Assembly: GCF_006345805.1 (NCBI RefSeq) | Contig: NC_043005.1 | Span: 86,800,001-86,864,000, forward strand | Origin: Octopus sinensis | Taxonomy: Eukaryota | DNA: 64,000 nt | Direction: 5' to 3' | Part shown: one piece after another, positions 6,453-63,685 of the stretch | Layout: each line of letters opens with the position of its first letter | How positions within the stretch are numbered: the first letter of the stretch is position 1 | Position numbers and translations under genes: made by a program | The notes under the pieces: model-generated | Seen by the model: only the letters and a program-made list of their open reading frames with translations | What the model was told of the DNA's origin: nothing | The model's database searches: none

Positions 6453-6829
6453 CTGTATGCATGTATATATACACATATATATAGTTGTGTGTGTGTGTGT
6501 GTTTACTATCGTATCGTCAGTTCAAATATCCGAAAATGTACCCCATTCTAACACATTAGGGTAGTAATGTATTTTTCTAGGAAGTTAAAATTCATGGCTG
6601 TGACCTTTGGCGTCGCAGCTATAAAGCGCTTAGCAGTGTAGGTGACTCGTTCGATTCAAATTATTGAAGACTCAAACTATTTATAACTGGAGAAAGAAAA
6701 TCGTAACGGTCAGATAGTTTTGAAGACAAAAAATATTCCCCGTGCTTCAGGCGGGGCAAGTTTAGTTCCCTGAAATCAGATTAGGCCGTGGTGATATTAA
6801 AATGATCTGCAGCGGGTCTATTCAGCGAA

Positions 6830-8190
6830 TTGAGTATACCAGGTCTGTAGTAGCAAACGATCTAGAGGAGAGCATTGACTGAATACTTCCTTCCTCGCGT
6901 GAGATTGTTAGGATTCTTGCCCTTGCTGCCAGACAAAGGTCACATCGTCTGCTCCCGTTTATATTAGTCCCTAGTTGTTCAAGAATCTTCCATTTAATTA
7001 TGCACGAGGTTCCTTCATCTTTTAAGTTCCATCCGTATCTGTCTAGGGACGTGATGTTGCACCTTTCTGGTATGCTAAAAGAGGAGTTGAGTTTGTTCAG
7101 GAGTCGAACCGACATATTTTCGTGCCTGTGTATCAGCTGTGTTAACATCTCCGATGTTTCTTTCGTTAACGCCAATGTCATTGTTGTGATTGTTAGAGTT
7201 GCCGCCGGTGTTGGTATTCCTTCATGTGATTCTGGCAGTTGTAGTGCTGATGACATAGCAGCTATTTCCAGCTGCAAAGTTGGTGTTGTTGCTGCCGTTG
7301 TAACTGTTGCTATTGTTGTCTCTGCTGCTTGATATGCTGCTGTTGCCACCGACGTCGCAGCTGCCACTGCTGTCGTTGCTGCTGTTGTCGGTGGAAGTAT
7401 CTTTGCTGCTTAGTCTCTTACCCTCGCTACTACTGTTGCCGCTGGTGCTGTTGCAGCTGTTGCTGTTGCAGCTGTTGCTGTTGAGCGTAGCGGTCTTCGT
7501 CCAGTGGGAGAAGCCCGAAACGTGGTCCTTTGCTATTCGTAAGACCCGCAGAAGAGAGAGCAGGTCAACCCCCGACACCGAGAGCATCGACGGATGGATG
7601 AATGCGCATCCAGGCTCAGCAGTTGCGTAGGAAGTCGTGGACAAGAAACAGGAAGAAAGAGTGAGAGAAAGTTAGAGCGAAAGAGTACAACAGGGGTCGC
7701 CACCACCCTCTGCCGGAGCCTCGTGGAGCTTTAGGTGTTTTCGCTCAACAATCACACACAACGCCCGGTCCGGGAATCGAAACCGCGATCCTCTCTCCGC
7801 GAGTCCACTGTCCTAACCTTTGGGCCATTGCGCCTCTACTTGCTGTTGCCGCTGTCGTTGTTGTCGATGTTGTTGCTGTCGCTGGATGTGTCGTTGTTGC
7901 TTAGGCGCTTACTCTGGATGGCAGTGTCAGTTACCACCTCAGCCTCATACACGACCCCCTCGTCTTCTCAATAACTCCACCACCGAGCAGTCATTGCATA
8001 CACTACATGAGCATCCTGTCTCTCTTCGAGGTTTAGGAGTGCTCTCTAAAAGGTCCTTAATGTTGGGTACGCAAGTATAATATACCCTCGAGTTGTGCCT
8101 GTTAAACAAATGTCCGTATCTGAATGACTGTGTGAAGTATTTGTCCACCAATTTAAAGAATAAGCTTCCCACGCAGGTTTAAACTTTGAC
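6830..8190 (-). mobile_element. Penelope-like element relic (RT C-terminus and GIY-YIG C-terminus), interrupted
   Basis: VGSLFFKLVDKYFTQSFRYGHLFNRHNSRVYYTCVPNIK (7945-8172) and SLDRYGWNLKDEG..IKWKILEQ..NGSRRCDLCLAARARIL (6822-7150) resemble PLE motifs. They are split by a CAG/CAA-rich tract and a SINE. Confidence 0.75.
7510..7835 (-). mobile_element. tRNA-derived SINE (head shared with the 21914 and 44450 copies, different tail)
   Basis: Minus strand AGGCGCAATGGCCCAAAGGTTAGG...GGTTTCGATTCCCGGACCGGGCG gives A and B boxes. Confidence 0.85.
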
Positions 8191-8639
8191 AGTTTCATGG
8201 GAAGCCGTGTTCATAAATTGGTAAAAGTAAGAACTGATGAACATGAATACGAAGACAAGGAAAATTCTGACAGTGCACGCAGCATTCCGTTCCAAGACTG
8301 ACACTTATAGGTTGTTCATATCCAGAAGAAAGGGTGCGAGAGGTTTGACCAGTTGCCAGGCTTGTGTAGAAGTAGAGGAAAACAGCTGAGTTATATATAT
8401 ATAAGTTCAGCAAAATTTAGATTCAGATGTATATGGTACTTAAGTTAAAGGCACCAGAAGTTTGCATGGCATTATCCATATAAAGCAAATGGGGTGATTA
8501 TAATCAAAATAAGTAAGAAGGGTATCCAAGATAGTGTAGTACAATCGTTTCATGCTACTTCATTTTATAAAATCAAAATAAGCAACAGGGATATCCAAGG
8601 TAGCGTAGTACAATCGTTTCATGCTCTGATTATATATAT

Positions 8640-23231: not shown

Positions 23232-23274
23232 ACCTTAACTGGTTTTCGAATTCTATTTTATTCTCATCAGAGGC
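23232..23274 (-). ncRNA. Minimal type I hammerhead motif
   Basis: Minus strand cct-CTGATGA-gaat-aaaataga-attc-GAAA-accag-TTA-agg. Stems I and II pair. Confidence 0.7.
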
Positions 23275-23583
23275 AGCTACATCAATTTAACCAATCCCAA
23301 AGAAACAAGCTGCCAATTTATTCATATACTCAACAATTCCAGTACCTACAGGAAACTAGAGCTACTCAATCTAACACCAAGGACTTTGTGTTTGATTATA
23401 TTTCAATACTTTATATGCGAGAAGCTAATGCGATCTTATCCTAAGTGTCTGACTAGTTTCGTTCCGATATTTTGAACAGAGTATACAAAAGTAAAATCCG
23501 TGCGAAGATTAATTTTTTCCATTTATTCAATACACCCTATAACATATTTCATTTATAATATTATATGTAATATGAATATATAT

Positions 23584-23870
23584 ATACAAAATTTAGAGGG
23601 TCGACCACTAAAAGTCGACAGCCTGTATACTAGAAATAGACCTCAAAATCGCCATTTTCCACGGAGAATGTGTTCTCAAGAACAAAATTCAACAAAAACC
23701 CAATTCTCCGTAGAAAATGGCGATTTTGAGGACTATTTCTAGTATACAGGCTGTCCACTTTTAGTGGTCAGTCCTCTAAATTTTGTATGTAAAAAGTTTT
23801 TAATCTTCAGATATTTTTAAATATACTAGACCACTGGTTTTAATTGATTAATATCAATTTGTACCCTTAT

Positions 23871-30432: not shown

Positions 30433-32705
30433 TTAGAGTATGTTTAGTTGTGGTCTGTATTTTTGAATAAGATTACTTTCCTTATTTATTCGTGTTTGGT
30501 CTGTGGTGTTGTCCGAGCATTGGTATAGTGGGAAGACTAAGAATTTGGGGGACTTATTGTGTGCACAAAGGTCTAAGTGTCCACTTAGTGTATCTGTCTT
30601 GTGGAGGGGTCCCTCAGTTGTTGTCGGTGAACTGTCATTCTGTCTCTGAGGGTAAGGCTCGTTTGCCCTATGTAATCTTCGTGGCATCCTTCACACCTTA
30701 TGACGTAGAGTAAATTTTTTGATGCGCACGTGAAATTATTTTTTATGATGAATGTGTGTCCCGAGTGGAACTTGTACGATGATCCCTCAATGAGGTGGAT
30801 GCAGGTCTTGCAGTTGGGGCGACCACATTTTTTGATGGTGGGCGGTGGGTTTGTGTTGTGTAATTTTGCGTTGGTGAGGAGGTTTTTTAGGGATTTAGGT
30901 TGTCTCTTACTTTTTATTATTTTATGAGCTGCCAGTATTTTTTTCAGGCGTGGGTCTTGATTTAGTTGTGGAATGTTGTTGTATATAATAGTGTAAGCTT
31001 CTGCATTCCTTGGGTTGTGTGTTGAGAGATAAGGGAGGCTATTGACTGTACTGTGGATGTGTTTGGGTTTTCGAAGGTCTTGAATGTTGATTGATTTGGC
31101 CCGTTCTATTCCGTTGTCTACTAGTGATGCCGGGTAATGTCTTTCGAGAAGAATTGCCCTTAGTTACCGGAGTCTTCTATTTCGTGTTGTGTCATTTGAG
31201 ACAATAGTGCAGATTCTTCTCGCTAGGTTGAAGGGGATATTTGTCTTTGTGTGTTTTGGGTGATTGGAGGTGAATAGAAGGTATTGTTTAGAGTCAGTGG
31301 GTTTGTAATGGATGTCAGTTTCAATGTTGACGCCTTTTTCAATGATTAGGATGTCAAGAAAAGGGAGTTGGTCCTGACTATATTCCATTGTGAATTGAAT
31401 GTTGTTATTTACACTGTTGATAAGGTTTTTGAAGTCTATAAGTTGGTCGAGTGTGTGGGACCGTAGGATGAGGCAATCATCTAAGTAGCGTTTCCAGTTC
31501 TCCAACAGGTATTTGTGGAAAGACTGGCCGTACTTATATTTGGATTTTTCATAGATATGTGATTCCAGGTAGGCCATCACCAGGTTTGCATAGGTAGGTG
31601 CAACTTTCGTACCCATTGCAGTACCTGAGACCTGTCTGTAAGTGTTGTTGTGGAAATACATGAAGTTGTTTTGCAGAATAAATTTGAGGCCCTCAATTAT
31701 GAATTCTTTTTTAATTCTTTCCGGGATCTCATTGGGATATTTATCCAGCCAGAATTTAATGGCTTCCATCCAAATTCATGTGGGATTGTGGTGTAAAGAT
31801 TAATAACATCAAAAGAAACGATTAAGGTGTCTTTATCGGCATGTTTGGGGAGATGGTTTAATAGGTCCAGGTCATCTCTTACAATACTTGGAATGTGTTT
31901 CAGTATTGGCTTTAAGATGATATCTATAAAGTTGCTAAGTCTGTGTGTTTCACAACTTGGGCCTGCCACTATTGGTCTCAGTTTGAGATCAGTGGGATGT
32001 GGTATAGTGATGCAGGTTGAAGTGGACTTTTTGCAAGCTTCTGTGATAATTTGACTCTTGTGTATTTTTGGAAGCCCATAGAGTGTGCTGGTTTTGCAAT
32101 TAAATTTAGTAATGTAGTCGCATTCCTTTGCTGTCAAGTCATTCCGGTGTTGGTAAATGAGTGCCTTCAGATTGGTCATTGTTTTGGATTGCTGGTAGTC
32201 GACTACTCTTTCGTAGTATGTGGTATCCTCTAAAAGGAGAGATACAGAGTTTTTATATTGCTCAGTATTCATAACAACGACCGTACTACCCTTATCAGCT
32301 TCCTTTATTGTGACGTCATGATTGTCTCGTAGCGTATGGATGATTTCCCATTCTCTTTTACTGGTGTTGGGTTTGAGTTTAGGTTGTGGGAGTTCACCAT
32401 AAGGGAAGTTGGAGATGTAATCGCAAAATTTGTCTAAGGTTTTGTTTTTGCCTTTTATGGGATTATAGTTGCTTTTGTTACAGACCATTGATTCGTCGAT
32501 ATTATTAGTTTTCCTGTCAAAAAATTCCTCTGTGAGGCGTAATTTTCTGCAAAAGTGCGAGATGTCATCCTGTATTTCCCTCAGGTTAGGGTATTGCGGA
32601 GTTGGGGTGAATTTTAGTCCTCTTGAAAGGATTTTTATTTGTGGTGTCGACAGGTTTAGGTTAGAGATTCACTATTTTTGGTTTTTCGGGGTTGGTATCT
32701 ACCAT
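30433..32705 (-). pseudogene. Penelope-type reverse transcriptase plus GIY-YIG endonuclease, frameshifted
   Basis: N-terminal IVNL/NLNLSTPQIKILSRGLKFTPTP, then TIKEADKGSTVVVM, LYGLPKIHK, LRPIVAG, SFDVINLYTTIPH, GTAMGTKVAPTYANL, WKRYLDD, LPFLDILI, IHYKPTD. Linker CGRPNCKTC. Endonuclease FTCASKNLLYVIRCEGCHEDYIGQT..RMTVHRQQ. Broken into at least four frames. Confidence 0.95.
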
Positions 32706-33074
32706 CTGGTGTCGTGGAAACTGATGCCCTGCCTAAAAAAGGAATCCTGGGGGTTCTTCTATTTGCAGTATTTTGCTGTATGTGATTCTGTCCCCCGTTG
32801 ACATGTCTGTTGAAGAGGTTTTGGTTGTTGTGATTCTGTCCCCCGTTGCTATGTTGTCTGTTGAGGAGGTTTTGGTTGTTCCAGGGTCTGGGTTGTTGGT
32901 GTGGCCTCCTGGAAGAGTTTTGGTTATTCCAGGGTTTGGGTTGTTTGTCCTGGGTGTAATGTTGGTTCCTTAGAGTGGGTTGGAAACTATATTCATGGTT
33001 TAGAAGTGAATCCCTATATGTTGGGGGAGAACTCTGAGTTAGGAGCGGTTTGGGTTGGAATCTACAATCATAGT

Positions 33075-33590
33075 TCAGAGATGGGTTTCTAAGTGATGGG
33101 TAGGATCTCCGAATCTGGAACGGTTCTTGTGTGGGTTGGGGTCTACGTTGTCTGGTAAGTTTTGTCGTGTGATGATGGGTGTCTCGGTTCTTTTGATGGG
33201 ATTGTAGTGCTGTCTGTAAGTTCTGTTGTTGTTGTTGTCGATGTTAGGGGTGGTGTGTGTTCGGTGTTTTGTGGTTGGTTTTCTTTGTTTTTGGCGAGGG
33301 GTGTGAGTTGAAGTAGATATTTTAAAATATGGGTTGCTTGAAAGGTGTTCCTTTGTGAACTCTGTTTCATAATTGGTGAACCAGCTGTTTTTTTCCATTC
33401 GCTGGAGGGATGTTATTTCTTCATCCTCGCAGTTTTTTCTCCAGTGTTTGGTGGTTTCATCAAGGAGTGCTCCTTCACAGTGTTTTGAGATTTCAATCTG
33501 CATTTCATTGTCAAGGGTCTTGGATTTTTCTTCACTGGCGTTGGCTCTGAGCCGCAAGAGTTCTACTTCCGTTTTGAATTTTTCATATCT
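33075..33590 (-). CDS. Upstream ORF region of the Penelope-like element (5'-truncated, function unknown)
   Basis: Complex charged, helical-looking sequence [30 protein letters not shown]..., on the same strand and directly upstream of the RT ORF. The first 25 aa of the listed ORF are microsatellite. Confidence 0.55.
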
Positions 33591-33676
33591 ATATATATAT
33601 AGATATGTATATAGATATATATATAGATAGATAGATAGATATATACATACGTATATGTACATATTTACATCTATAA

Positions 33677-33719
<43 letters not shown>

Positions 33720-33723
<4 letters not shown>

Positions 33724-34300
33724 AATTTGGGTACAGGACGTCACAAAACATGTGCAACAGAAATTACGAAGTACGTATACATGGGATTTGAACTATTTTT
33801 CGAACAACGAAAGACACAAATAGAAAGCAAGACAAACAACATAAAAAAACGACCCTTCATCAGTTATTAGCTGTTTTACTACTCTCGTATTTCGAGCATT
33901 TAACAACAATATACGCTTTCGATAAAACAGTTGCTCCCGTAAAGCAAATTAAATCAAATTTGGGATTTTGCGAAGGATCAAAATTGGTAACACAAACAAA
34001 CAGGAAGGGTTGTTAAGCCAAATCGAGGTTGTGATGGTGAACGCGTAAATCAAGCTTAGATAGGAGACAGACAAGAAGACGCCTTCCTTCTTCCAGCTAC
34101 AACGGAGAGAAAGAAAGTAACACAATTTTGGAGAAAAATAAAGACGGCTAATGATCACGTGGGAACCACATGAGGAAGGGAGGAGGAGTGAGGGAGAGAT
34201 AGTGACAGAGTAATAAGATAGAATATATGGAGAAGGGGAGGTAAAATATTAAGAGAGAGAAAGAGAAAAGCAAAAGATTAAAAATATCGTATAGAGTGCA
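33720..34300 (-). mobile_element. Probable Penelope-type terminal fragment
   Basis: Begins at (TA)n. Purine-rich tract as in the 48385 and 53020 elements, and a decayed GAAAGC...GCTCGAAAT motif on the minus strand. Confidence 0.4.
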
Positions 34301-42029: not shown

Positions 42030-43490
42030 TTAACCACTGATAGACCGGGGGATGGTTAGGCATCTTGGAAAGACAAGATGACTGTTCGAAAAGACGAGCG
42101 GACAATAGGAAAGACTATCGACACCAGGAAAAAGTGGCGGAGGCTGTGTACTTATAATCCTCGCCTCTGTAACATGTTTTAACATACACCAATGAGAATG
42201 ACAGATTAACCGAGAGAAGGAGAGTCGAGAACCAATCAACCCAGTTAACACGGAAATGACCTTGGGCATGAAAACAGATCTTCCTTCGAAAAGCGAACGA
42301 AGTGCAAACAACTTTGGGTGCAAGCTGTGCTGTAGGACCTTTTTAACTGAAAGAGGCTTGAAGATACATCAGGAAAAGTGTTGTAAGAATAGGACAGAGC
42401 AGTGTGGATCAACTGATCGTAAAACACGTGGTAAATCATCCCTGGGCTCAAATCACAGCGGATCGATAGATGCTACAGCAAAAACCTCTTCCCGACAAGA
42501 AATTGCAGGTTATGAAACGGGTGAATCACATAGTACTCGGAGGAAACCGAGGGTTCTGTTGCCTGCTGCTAATGAGAAAGGAAGATATAAAGAGTTTGAG
42601 AAAAAGATGTGTCAAGCTTTTTATAAGATGAGAGGATCTACAGTGGAGAAACTGGGGAAGTATACGATAATAGAAAGGAATTATTTGGAGTGAAAGAGAG
42701 TATCCGATTTGCGAAAGAAAAGTGTGGACCAAATGGGAGGATCAGGAAAATGAAACAGTTGAGGAGGGAAAAGAACAGCCTAAGAAAACGATGAAAATAT
42801 GTTGCGGAAGACGGAAAACCTGGTCTCGCGCCGCTGTACGACGATTTAAAAGGAAATGTCGTTATGTGCAACGACATATCCGCCGATGTGAACGGCGAAA
42901 GGAAAGGAAAAGGACTCGGGGACAGTTTCTGAAGAAGTAGTTCACTGAACCGAAAAGAGGCCCTTTGTCATGCACAAAAGAAGAATTGGATGCTCATATC
43001 AAAAAAACCTACAGCGATCCACACAGTAACCAGCCACTGCAACCTATAAATGGGCAAAAGCATCTCTTCGAATCTGATATCGAATTTCAAATTGGGAACA
43101 TCAGGGAGAAAGAGGTGAATGATTTCGTAAGAGAGGCTAGAGCAAAGAGTGTCCCAGGAGGTGATGGTGTCTCGTATAAAGTATACAAATATTGCAATCG
43201 TCTCCGAAAGAAGCTATTTGCCCTACTCCAAAGCTGTCACACGAAGAAATTCTAGGAGTGGTGTAAGGCAGAAGGCATATACTTTGTTTTTGTAACTGGG
43301 ATGAGAAAGAATAGTAATCTAGCAAGCCGGGCCTCATGTTAGTGATGGTACCGGTGCTCATTGATGCCGTCGAGTAGTAGCCCCCGAAACGGCGTGCATT
43401 CACTCCTGACGACTCCATACGCTTGCTGGCTTCCGGTACGTGGAGCTTGCAACTGGTAGCACTTGCATGTGCAGCTTGTTTGCAAAATGC
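42030..43490 (+). mobile_element. Hero-like (restriction-like endonuclease class) non-LTR retrotransposon, internally deleted
   Basis: N-terminal zinc finger CKLCCRTFLTERGLKIHQEKC, then KPRVLLPAANEK, CTKEELDAHIKKTYSD, VREARAKSVPGGDGVSYKVYKYC and WCKAEGIY. Coding breaks off at the RT start (about 43285) and is followed by a GC-rich putative 3' UTR ending at (TA)n. Confidence 0.8.
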
Positions 43491-43497
43491 ATATATA

Positions 43498-43533
<36 letters not shown>

Positions 43534-43538
<5 letters not shown>

Positions 43539-43904
43539 AAAAAAGCAACAAGAATGGATTAAAATCTCGGTACGATCGTTTCGTACGAGGACATCTTTAA
43601 TAAGCTACAAAAAATGCAGTGAATACAGATGGCTCGTACTCGTCAGCCGAAAAAACATCAGATAATTTTTTTCGGCTGACGAGTACGAGCCATCTGTATT
43701 CACTGCATTTTTTGTAGCTTATTAAAGATGTCCTCGTACGAAACGATCGTACCGAGATTTTAATCCATTCTTGTTGCTTTTTTCCTATTTGTAATCACCC
43801 CACTTGTCGTATGGTTAACACCATATAGATTTCCGGTGCATCCTAGTTAAGGACCATATTCATGTGAATTCTTTAGAATTCACTAGAATCTCAATTACTT
43901 AACC

Positions 43905-43905
<1 letters not shown>
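43534..43905. mobile_element. Young fold-back Penelope-type terminal-repeat insertion in (TA)n
   Basis: 43534-43655 is the exact reverse complement of 43667-43788. The direct arm extends about 117 bp further, and (TA)n lies on both sides. Confidence 0.9.
43671..43756 (+). ncRNA. Intact minimal type I hammerhead ribozyme (mirror copy on the minus strand at about 43566-43651)
   Basis: ttcgg-CTGACGA-GTACGAG...CTCGTAC-GAAAC-gatc-GTA-ccgag: 5-bp stem I, 7-bp stem II, palindromic ACGATCGT. Confidence 0.88.
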
Positions 43906-43974
<69 letters not shown>

Positions 43975-49416: not shown

Positions 49417-49624
49417 CATTCAAGAACACACAAAAATAGTTTCATTTCAAATATATTCGTCGCTTTGAAACCGCGACCTGTTCACTGACAAAAATTCGTG
49501 CTGCATCACTTTTGCGAAGTTTCATTAGTGAACAGGTCGCTGTTTCAAAGCGAAGAAAATATTTCGACGCAAATGAAAATTTAGATGTTGAAATTAAACC
49601 AACTGTTTTTGTGTGTTCTTGAAT
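49417..49624. mobile_element. Fold-back (MITE-like) element
   Basis: ATTCAAGAACACACAAAAA / TTTTTGTGTGTTCTTGAAT and TCGCTTTGAAAC.GCGACCTGTTCACT / AGTGAACAGGTCGC.GTTTCAAAGCGA. Confidence 0.8.
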
Positions 49625-49737
49625 ACACTGACTTCTTTCCTACAATATAAATTGTTTCTACATAAAAAAAAAAAATTGTATGTTTATAAACAGGTGCAAT
49701 TCACTATTAATTTAAACTAACCATTAAGAGATAAATA

Positions 49738-50287
49738 CAGGTTTATTCAAAAAGAACGAACAGAATTCAAATTTAATTATTAAAACAAACGGTAAGAGAC
49801 ACAAACACACTCTACATCTTTCTTGATTACGGAAGGTTTAAAGTTTATAGCTGAACATGATCAATTGAATTAAGCCTTACTTAAAATAATATTCTAATTG
49901 TGTTTTAATGTTTCATTTTGTTCATTCTATTTAAAGTTGTATAATTTTCGTTTGTGCAATCCCTTAGGAAATGACGCCGTCGCAAGAAAAGTCTTTTTGT
50001 GTGCAGCAGTTTGAGAAATGCGAATCGATTGTGCAAGTGCAACGTGAATTCAATAAAAATCCACCTCGTCACAAGAAAATTTACGAATGGCATAATAATT
50101 TTACAGAAAACGGTTGCATTTGTAGAAGGAAAAGCACCAGTTCTCATGGTGCTCACGTTGATTGCACACTACCTTAAATGAACCTAAATTCTGCCCCTAT
50201 CAATAAATGTGTAGAATGTGTTTGTGTGTCTTACCGTTTGTTTTAAAAATAAATTTAAAAGCTCCTCTTTCGTTTTAAATAACCCAG
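49738..50287 (+). mobile_element. Internally deleted Tc1/mariner element with long TIRs and TA target duplication
   Basis: TA|CAGGTTTATTCAAAA ... TTTTAAATAACCCAG|TA, with about 85-bp imperfect TIRs. The internal ORF MTPSQEKSFCVQQFEKCESIVQVQREF..PPRHKKIYEWHNNFTENGCICRRKS resembles a DUF4817-type transposase HTH. Confidence 0.88.
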
Positions 50288-50302
50288 TATATTTGTGAAG
50301 AA

Positions 50303-50722
50303 GGGATCTTTTCGGTTTGAACGGCAGTTTTTTCTAGCGGTATCATATGAAATTGTCACAAATAAATATGACCCTAGTATCGATCAATTGCATTTCAATC
50401 TGTTTTAGGGTTAGGGTTAGGGGTGGGGGAAGGATATCTTTTTTTCTTCAGAAATGTAAATAAACCCAATCTGTTTCTTAAACAAGGGACTTATTAATGT
50501 GACATAGAATGTTTTCCCCTCCAATAGACGCCATTGATTGGTTGAAATTGCAGAAATTGAAGAAAAAAACAACAAATATCTTACAAATTATAGAATTTTC
50601 TCAATAAAGTCAAGAGAAAAAAGATATTTTATAAACACATTCTACCAGTATACGAAGTTTAAAAGTGTTTAGTTACGTGGAAATTATTTTTAAAAAACTG
50701 CCGTTCAAACCGAAAATATCCT
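50303..50722. mobile_element. MITE with about 30-bp TIRs and internal (TTAGGG)3
   Basis: GGATCTTTTCGGTTTGAACGGCAGTTTTTT / AAAAAACTGCCGTTCAAACCGAAAATATCC. Confidence 0.88.
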
Positions 50723-56183: not shown

Positions 56184-56225
<42 letters not shown>

Positions 56226-56299
56226 TATATATATATAACAATTTTAAATACCGTTGGGTTTTTCTCATAAGGTATTGGAATCTTAGATATATATATATA

Positions 56300-56510
56300 T
56301 ATTTCTTTACTACCCACAATGGGCTAAACACAGAGGGGACAAACAAGGACAGACAAACAGATTAAGCCGATTATATCGACCCCAGTGCGTAACTGGTACT
56401 TAATTTATCGACCCCGACAGAATGAAAGGCAAAGTCGACCTCGGCGGAATTTGAACTCAGAACGCAAAGCATTTCGCCCGGCGTGCTAACGATTATGCCA
56501 GCTCGCCGCC
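56300..56510 (-). mobile_element. Meta-like SINE monomer inserted into a Penelope-type terminal fragment
   Basis: Head GGCGGCGAGCTGGC on the minus strand, flanked by AATCTTA(G/C)ATATATA on both sides (likely TSD). Confidence 0.88.
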
Positions 56511-56961
56511 TTAATCTTACATATATACCATTCTGCCTAATATAAATTCCATAGACCTACATATCTCACATCCATTTTCTTTCCTCCACCTCACTCTTTA
56601 TTTTGTACCCTATCTAAATTGATTATTTCTGAACCATTCTCTCACAACGTCTCCTATGAAGGAATATAATTAATAAATATCCTGGAAGCAGCTGTAAGGT
56701 ATTCTATCTATAAACGTTCTAATATCTACACAGCCTCGGGTTTCTATCTCATTACGCCAAAGAAGATACTTATATATATATATATATATATATAATAATA
56801 AATATTAGGTCGATATATGGGGTCGATATAATCGGCTTAATCTGTTTGTCTGTCCTTGTTTGTCCCCTCTGTGTTTAGCCCATTGTGGGTAGTAAAGAAA
56901 TATATATATATATATATAAGATTCAAATACCTTATGAGAAAAACCCAAATTGTCTCGAATA

Positions 56962-57012
<51 letters not shown>

Positions 57013-59084: not shown

Positions 59085-59085
<1 letters not shown>

Positions 59086-59893
59086 ATCAACTAATAAGGG
59101 TGAGAAAATTTAATAGTACATCCATTTAACACCAAGTCCAGAATACAATTTACTCAACCGCACGCTAGATTTTACCATAACGATAAACACACGTGTGGTT
59201 CAGTCGATTGCATTCGCTGTTATAATTCAAGTGCCCCTGCCACAGCCCGCCAAAATTAACGGAAACAGATACTACATTTATTTGCCCTGTTCGTTTGCGC
59301 TAGTAGTCGTGCTAACTTTCATCGGAAAGAGTTCGGAAACCTAGCGGATCTATTTTTAGTGCTAGAGTCGACCACATAGTGGTTACTCTCTTATATTTAT
59401 GTATAAAATTCATTGTAATCCAAGTTTTTATGCACTAAGCCACTTGGTGTTAAATGGATGTACTATTAAATTAGTATTCAATTTTCTCAACCTTATTAGT
59501 TGATTGTAATTATACTACATATAATTTTGGATGTAGTATCTGTTTCTGTGAATTTTGGCGGACTGTGGTAGGGGGGCTTGAATTATGCAATCGACTGAAC
59601 CACACGTGTGTTTATCGTTATGGTAAAATCTAACGTGCGGTTGAATAAATTGTATTCTGGACGGATTCGGCTGAAGAGCTACAGATATGTTATGTGAGTA
59701 AAATTATATATTTATTAATAGCGAAACAATTGTCCTGAACTAATCTGCATTTTTGTTATTTTTATTTGCCCTCTTCGTTTGCGCTAGTAGTCGTGCTAAA
59801 TTTCATCGGAAACAATTCTTTGTGGCTGAAACCTAGCGGATCTATTTTTAGCGGTAGAGTCGACCACATAGTGGTTACACTCTTATATTTATG

Positions 59894-63149: not shown

Positions 63150-63153
<4 letters not shown>

Positions 63154-63685
63154 AAATTAAAGTCAAAATGAGGGTGGAAAATTGGATATTAATTTAATAA
63201 CATCAATTTAACACCAATGGTTTAGCGCATAAAAAATTGAGATTCAGTAAATATTATTAGTACATAAATACGAGAGGGAATCCACTATGTGGAAGCCCTT
63301 ACGCTAAAGAGAGATCCGCATGAGTCTCAACCACTCAGAATTGCTCTCAAGAAAAATTTAGCACACCATGAACGTAAGCGCGCAGGACAAATGAAAAATA
63401 ACAAAAATATAAATTAACCCGTTACAATTGTTTCACTGTGAATAAATTATGCAATTTTACTTACACAATTCATCTGCAGTTGGTCAGTGAGGTCATCATA
63501 TAAAGATATAATTTGTCGAACTCCACGCCAGATATCAACACGAGGTTGAAAATACATGTAGTTCCAACTATTACATCTACGGTTATGTTCAAACGTCCTG
63601 GAGAACAATCATAGTGGTTGAGGCTTATGCGGATCTCTTATTAGCGTAAGGGATTCCACAATGTGGAATCCCTTTATGTATATAA
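63150..63685 (-). mobile_element. Fold-back Penelope-type terminal fragment with decayed hammerhead
   Basis: Inverted arms at about 63275-63350 and 63598-63675, family terminus at 63165, and minus-strand CAGATGA-attgtg...cacagt-GAAAC-aatt-GTA at about 63420-63476. Confidence 0.8.

Follow-up and report, generated by a model that had tools for sequence, protein, structure and literature searches.

A perfect fold-back at positions 43534-43905 of the window (the whole 64,000-nucleotide stretch of Octopus sinensis DNA analysed here) is, very probably, a real and ordinary inverted stub of a Penelope-like element (PLE), left by a recent, dead-on-arrival insertion of an element's 3′ end into a (TA)n microsatellite. 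The kind is already known, since its layout has been described for PLE insertions, and the locus by itself is one further PLE stub, of little consequence. Its family is abundant and young; whether PLE hammerheads cut the transposition template could be tested on its many inversion junctions and on transcripts that may be edited.

Anatomy of the unit and its hammerheads

From left to right, the unit consists of a (TA)n run, an inverted truncated copy, a filler, a truncated copy in direct orientation that is extended by 117 nt, and a second (TA)n run (Table 1). The two arms, 43534-43655 and 43667-43788, mirror each other exactly as reverse complements of 122 nt on either side of an 11-nt spacer. 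Because the left arm shares its outermost 3 nt with the left TA run, 119 nt are unambiguous. The fold-back has a z score of -33 against 100 shuffles. The perfect fold-back announced in the earlier note was thus borne out, together with the complete hammerhead that it placed within each arm, a type I core being present on both strands. It had also pointed out that an antisense copy precedes the ribozyme on both strands, which is true because the geometry is head to head, though any head-to-head inversion gives the same order. The spacer has the length that had been given for it, but it is not a neutral loop: seven of its 11 bases (43656-43662) are element sequence, which we assign to the inverted copy because family contigs align through 43662, and the other four are filler (43663-43666).

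Table 1. Parts of the inverted unit and its flanks, in window coordinates
Feature	Positions	Strand	Remarks
(TA)n run, left	43491-43536	none	Likely insertion target; adjoins a decayed non-LTR retrotransposon
Inverted 5′-truncated copy of the element end	43534-43662	-	122-nt arm plus 7 more element bases; without tail
Type I hammerhead, inverted copy	43565-43652	-	Core at 43646; predicted cut 3′ of 43571; mirrors the plus copy
Junction filler, 4 nt	43663-43666	none	Likely untemplated, from its letters compared with the loose ends of family contigs
Direct 5′-truncated copy of the element end, pLTR-like, with tail	43667-43905	+	
Type I hammerhead, direct copy	43670-43757	+	Predicted cut after 43751
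Stem III palindrome, 8 nt	43743-43750	+	Intermolecular helix in the predicted dimer (cofold)
One-sided 3′ extension (tail), 117 nt	43789-43905	+	Small internal inverted repeat at 43858-43889
(TA)n run, right	43906-43970	none	

In the direct copy, a 6-bp stem I (43670-75/43752-57) encloses the core (43676-43682) and a 7-bp stem II (43683-89/43733-39) that carries a 43-nt insert, with GAAA at 43740-43743 and the GUA triplet at 43749-43751. A hammerhead descriptor with these stem lengths matched twice in the window, once in each arm, and in none of 200 shuffled windows. An Rfam search returned no hammerhead match at the gathering score or at E <= 10, probably because the stem II insert is long. 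The best Rfam match, MIR169_6, reached 48.6 bits (gathering score 54) equally on both strands, as a generic hairpin would, and a microRNA precursor was rejected. The stem III helix is supported by a linked pair of changes, G>A at 43574 and C>T at 43577, which swaps one of its base pairs and keeps the palindrome; the pair occurs at near-equal depth in all four sequencing runs described below and marks an abundant family variant.

Family copies and a proposed route of insertion

Contigs from four of 24 listed public runs (X2, X3 and X4, which are DNA, and X16, which we guess to be RNA) were aligned to 43534-43905. The element is an abundant repeat, with 227 matching contigs in X2, 465 in X3, 116 in X4 and 31 in X16, and the family is dispersed in many copies. 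Among the matches listed, two zero-difference contigs in X4 have depths of 307 and 585, and the others about 5-14. Family contigs run past 43662 into upstream element sequence; at least one more X2 copy is 5′-truncated at about 43662-43667, just upstream of stem I. Both 3′ ends of the unit are used by other copies, since a 716-nt X2 contig departs from the element sequence at 43788 and one from X16 enters (TA)n near 43905. Summed contig depth, which is not a copy number, drops beyond 43788 in all three DNA runs (arm/tail ratios of 1.25, 3.21 and 2.51) and climbs 3′ of the cut site in two of the three. A tail copy, 73% identical, lies at 8421-8503 (-) and is followed by a 58-nt direct repeat. 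Pattern scans for relatives gave no matches in genome contigs or in viral contigs, and the sole match in a metagenome, which lies in GC-rich DNA and lacks stems I and III, was rejected as chance.

Five other left-right fold-back joints are found among the matches listed (43554/43771, 43561/43761, 43561/43767, 43586/43736 and 43662/43757). Two of them are exactly symmetric, and 43561/43761 is seen in two runs from two studies. Three of the five lack a ribozyme in either arm, one is cut inside stem II and one appears to leave a whole ribozyme exposed; two complete ribozymes are retained at none. An opposite-strand joint in X16 (43582/43659) is of a different kind and was excluded from this count. 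The five are no census: capture favours short arms, a joint upstream of 43660 would escape detection and some joints may belong to copies with a deleted centre.

The Penelope-type origin proposed in the earlier note is supported by the head-to-head truncated copies, the one-sided tail, the (TA)n target and the hammerhead with a palindromic stem III. We read membership of the PLEs from this anatomy because no autonomous partner of the family was found: the stub is without an ORF and has no significant match to the long PLE of the window at 30.4-34.3 kb. Published PLE insertions show an adjacent inverted 5′-truncated copy near the 5′ end, a tail of 30-40 bp at one end only and a bias for (TA)n (PMC8557442), and head to head is their commonest inverted arrangement, for which self-priming was proposed (PMC3846280). 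Also described are hammerhead pairs on opposite strands, 100-700 bp apart, and several animal PLEs in which helix III is palindromic (PMC4209133). In a literature search that covered few subscription papers, only PMC8557442 joined octopus, hammerhead ribozyme and Penelope. The unit has (TA)n runs on both sides, and another family copy also ends in (TA)n. No target-site duplication is definable inside TA runs; the TT break shared by the two runs was rejected as one, given that 13 of the 28 TA runs of at least 30 nt in the window are interrupted. These breaks are TT or AA, several of them about 14 nt from the start of the run, and may be a biological or an assembly trait.

A route to such a unit can be proposed with enzymology taken from a lizard PLE, the protein of which cuts and extends both strands of AT-rich DNA and uses two reverse-transcription start sites that define the tail (PMC11167929). 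The GIY-YIG nuclease of the element would cut the TA run, and reverse transcription would copy the RNA end back to just beyond the hammerhead. The inverted second copy would belong to this one insertion event: either the other target end primes its synthesis, starting at a second site, or the cDNA folds back on itself. Four filler bases would join the two copies, one ending at the equivalent of 43788 and the other 117 nt further. Two-ended priming is slightly favoured over cDNA fold-back at the locus, given the 7-nt offset between the truncation points of the arms. The hammerhead would be a passenger of the element end.

We may wonder whether the joints say more than this. If the hammerhead cuts the RNA, cleavage would make the template's 5′ end, so copies starting just 3′ of the cut site would be expected; the direct copy begins 6-20 nt 3′ of the predicted site at four of the five other joints listed. 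We nevertheless consider it rather improbable that the fold-back junctions, together with the apparent A-to-I edits described below, record hammerhead cleavage in vivo with ADAR as a host brake; stalling at stem I, or simply a 3′ bias, accounts equally for this pattern. Were it true, the cleavage of PLE hammerheads would have left a footprint in fold-back junctions across the genome, and the role of the ribozyme would be testable from one genome. The function of PLE hammerheads is called unclear in the available text of PMC8557442.

The absence of any difference between the arms sets an age limit of about 1.5-6 My across the three rates tried, a limit that polishing could affect by masking arm differences. 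With a rate of 0.0036 per site per My, derived from PMC13282606 and valid only for an octopus host, the 95% upper age is about 3.5 My; in Octopus vulgaris, that paper lists 30 Penelope families that were recently active. The earlier note had read zero divergence as a very recent insertion or as conversion between arms; the young age holds and gene conversion is unneeded. Identical arms are also what a fold-back chimera of the library or assembly would give, or arms equalised by polishing, and among the contigs listed from X2, X3, X4 and X16 none bridges the centre (43655-43667); the listing leaves out 817 pieces, and a gap in it proves nothing. Such an artefact is unlikely, and we give it little weight, because the mirror symmetry breaks off at an element end also used by another copy, the two flanks are unlike each other and the window contains further fold-backs of this layout whose arms have diverged. 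Moreover, the spacer is made of seven element bases and four of filler, and similar joints occur in the runs of other studies, one of them in two studies (among the matches listed).

Other elements populate the window. At 59085-59893 (+) and 63153-63685 (-), another hammerhead family shows the layout of the 43534-43905 unit; its arms are 80-87% alike and its tails measure about 101-106 nt. It is older and TA-flanked, inverted and partly tandem, with an intact core at 59671 and a decayed one near 63480. A decayed element with a reverse transcriptase and a GIY-YIG domain at 30436-32668 is not the partner of the 43534-43905 family; the decayed PLE as a whole (30436-34300, -) has a reverse transcriptase, a C-terminal GIY-YIG domain and a CX4CX2C linker (Neptune/Nematis-type), with a frameshift and stops, and a minimal-hammerhead-like motif lies in its region at 33863, upstream of a TA run. 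The stop-to-stop ORF 6825-7409 (-), without a Pfam match, is a fragment that we take to resemble the end of a PLE protein of the GIY-YIG type. The left TA run is immediately preceded by an internally deleted non-LTR retrotransposon at 42127-43490 (+) (zinc finger and N-terminal part of the reverse transcriptase); its relatives, Aplysia proteins among them, have a PD-(D/E) nuclease-like motif. The named protein relatives belong to molluscs or to assemblies of their symbionts. A compact type I hammerhead-like motif at 23270 (-) lies 300 bp from an older fold-back (23551-23822) with arms about 80% alike. Further inverted-repeat pairs (49418-49624, 49735-50290, 50304-50721 and 56195-57007) are probably remnants of DNA transposons or MITEs and inverted SINE copies.

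Folding, possible editing and proposed muting

In equilibrium predictions a lone arm is misfolded, with a stem III probability of about 0.001, and two single arms cofold into a dimeric hammerhead as their minimum-energy structure. The lone hammerhead is predicted to be a dimer-type motif, nearly inactive by itself. A single minimal PLE hammerhead motif showed no detectable cleavage in vitro according to the available part of PMC4209133, and that of a lizard PLE cleaves only in the presence of the protein (PMC11167929). The two ribozymes of the unit lie on opposite strands and therefore do not dimerise in cis, so that, with the lone arm misfolded, there is probably little activity to mute. For a full transcript of either strand, the equilibrium prediction gives stems I-III a probability of 0.000, and the penalty for imposing the ribozyme fold is 128 kcal/mol; at every nascent length modelled the prediction favours the duplex, and has it form once the sense arm emerges. 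The hairpin is thereby predicted to block the ribozyme on both strands.

The earlier note had called for a search for A-to-G changes, and six were found in family contigs of the probable RNA run X16. In the left arm they are T>C at 43579, 43584, 43597, 43598, 43601 and 43606, that is, A-to-G on the sense strand at 43743, 43738, 43725, 43724, 43721 and 43716, respectively; each is carried by 2-6 contigs and accounts for 20-65% of the summed depth. The same sites have a depth of 0 for the change in X2 and X4, and in X3 at five of the six. Six of 14 adenines with a 5′ U or A are changed, compared with none of 12 with a 5′ G or C (p = 0.013, the sites not being independent), in agreement with an ADAR-type neighbour preference (PMC9989829). 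In the modelled fold of a single copy four of the six sites are mostly unpaired, which hints at a long duplex. Three further differences in X16 are of other types, each from single contigs, and matching changes were not found in the antisense arm in X16, where mirrored positions below 3% were outside the listing. X16 is another sample, its RNA status is guessed, it comes without matched DNA and its contigs are not tied to the 43534-43905 locus; the changes are thus suggestive of A-to-I editing of family transcripts in ADAR-type contexts, at the level of the family. Family transcripts are likely to be ADAR substrates, as other young repeats are. The ADAR substrate foreseen in the earlier note therefore finds possible support in the family, and its tie to this locus does not. 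No paper uniting Penelope, hammerhead, RNA editing and ADAR came up in the literature search, which covered few subscription papers.

These results bear on the central proposal of the earlier note, a self-muting ribozyme in a host pre-mRNA. In its selected form, ribozyme-covering fold-backs are kept in transcribed regions, where they spare the host RNA until editing or decay restores cleavage. The predicted loss of all three hammerhead stems on both strands, once the sense arm emerges, would suit it, and selection against genic hammerheads is plausible because related retrozymes are excluded from introns in Xenopus, according to the available part of a preprint (10.64898/2026.07.22.740005). 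We still judge it very unlikely. A ribozyme harmful enough to need muting is at odds with the misfolded lone arm; none of the five other joints listed holds two complete ribozymes, and one seems to expose a ribozyme. Blocking by the duplex thus stands as a prediction, and muting as a design is not supported, head to head being the commonest PLE geometry. Editing would not re-expose the ribozyme either: with I-U taken as G-U, the six edits change the modelled duplex from -217.8 to -217.2 kcal/mol and turning every A into G still leaves -153.0 kcal/mol, and the change at 43743 strikes A15.1 of the hammerhead core. A host exon was not detected, none of 291 window ORFs matching Pfam at E <= 0.001 (drawn from 414 non-repetitive ORFs of at least 38 aa after removal of low-GC ORFs and the long PLE), a weak test of the pre-mRNA setting because it missed LINE pieces too. 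Muting is likely to be a by-product of PLE insertion geometry, because the dimer-type motif is predicted to be nearly inactive alone. If selected muting were true, hosts would have a new means of tolerating inserted ribozymes; the evidence does not favour it.

Least credible is an independent non-autonomous unit, akin to a retrozyme or a MITE, that moves as a hairpin: it would fit the high abundance, the hammerhead, the lack of a long ORF and the proposal that retrozymes derive from PLE ends (10.64898/2026.07.22.740005), but no head-to-tail tandem exists at the locus, the right inverted repeat is not terminal and the inversion points differ among copies, so that the hairpin is not a fixed unit. 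A MITE or foldback DNA transposon was rejected on the 117 nt beyond the right arm and these variable inversion points, and a non-LTR retrozyme on the missing tandem unit.

Comparison with known systems

The PLE stub that we favour resembles inverted EN+ PLE insertions, including (TA)n types such as Neptune, in its adjacent inverted 5′-truncated copy placed head to head, its extension at one end, its microsatellite target and the hammerhead in the repeat end, as far as the available text of PMC8557442 and PMC3846280 describes them. It differs in that no ORF remains and in its extension of 117 nt, compared with 30-40 bp; with tails of about 100-117 nt, the two families of the window extend the described range. 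With the PLE hammerheads of PMC4209133, from the part available, the motif shares the type I core, the G10.1-C11.1 pair, a 7-bp helix II, a palindromic helix III, predicted dimer dependence and opposite-strand pairs within 100-700 bp, whereas its 43-nt loop II insert, its 8-nt palindrome and the lack of an extra base between 9 and 10.1 set it apart. The apparent editing is like that of young animal repeats in the accessible text of PMC9989829, with clustered A-to-G changes at a 5′ U or A in a young repeat, and unlike it in that the cluster lies in a ribozyme and comes from one probable RNA run without matched DNA. Finally, non-LTR retrozymes, as presented in the available parts of PMC7229834 and 10.64898/2026.07.22.740005, also combine a type I hammerhead with a short non-coding repeat of high copy number; here, in contrast, the ribozymes lie on opposite strands in no head-to-tail tandem, with no monomer release or pairing in cis.
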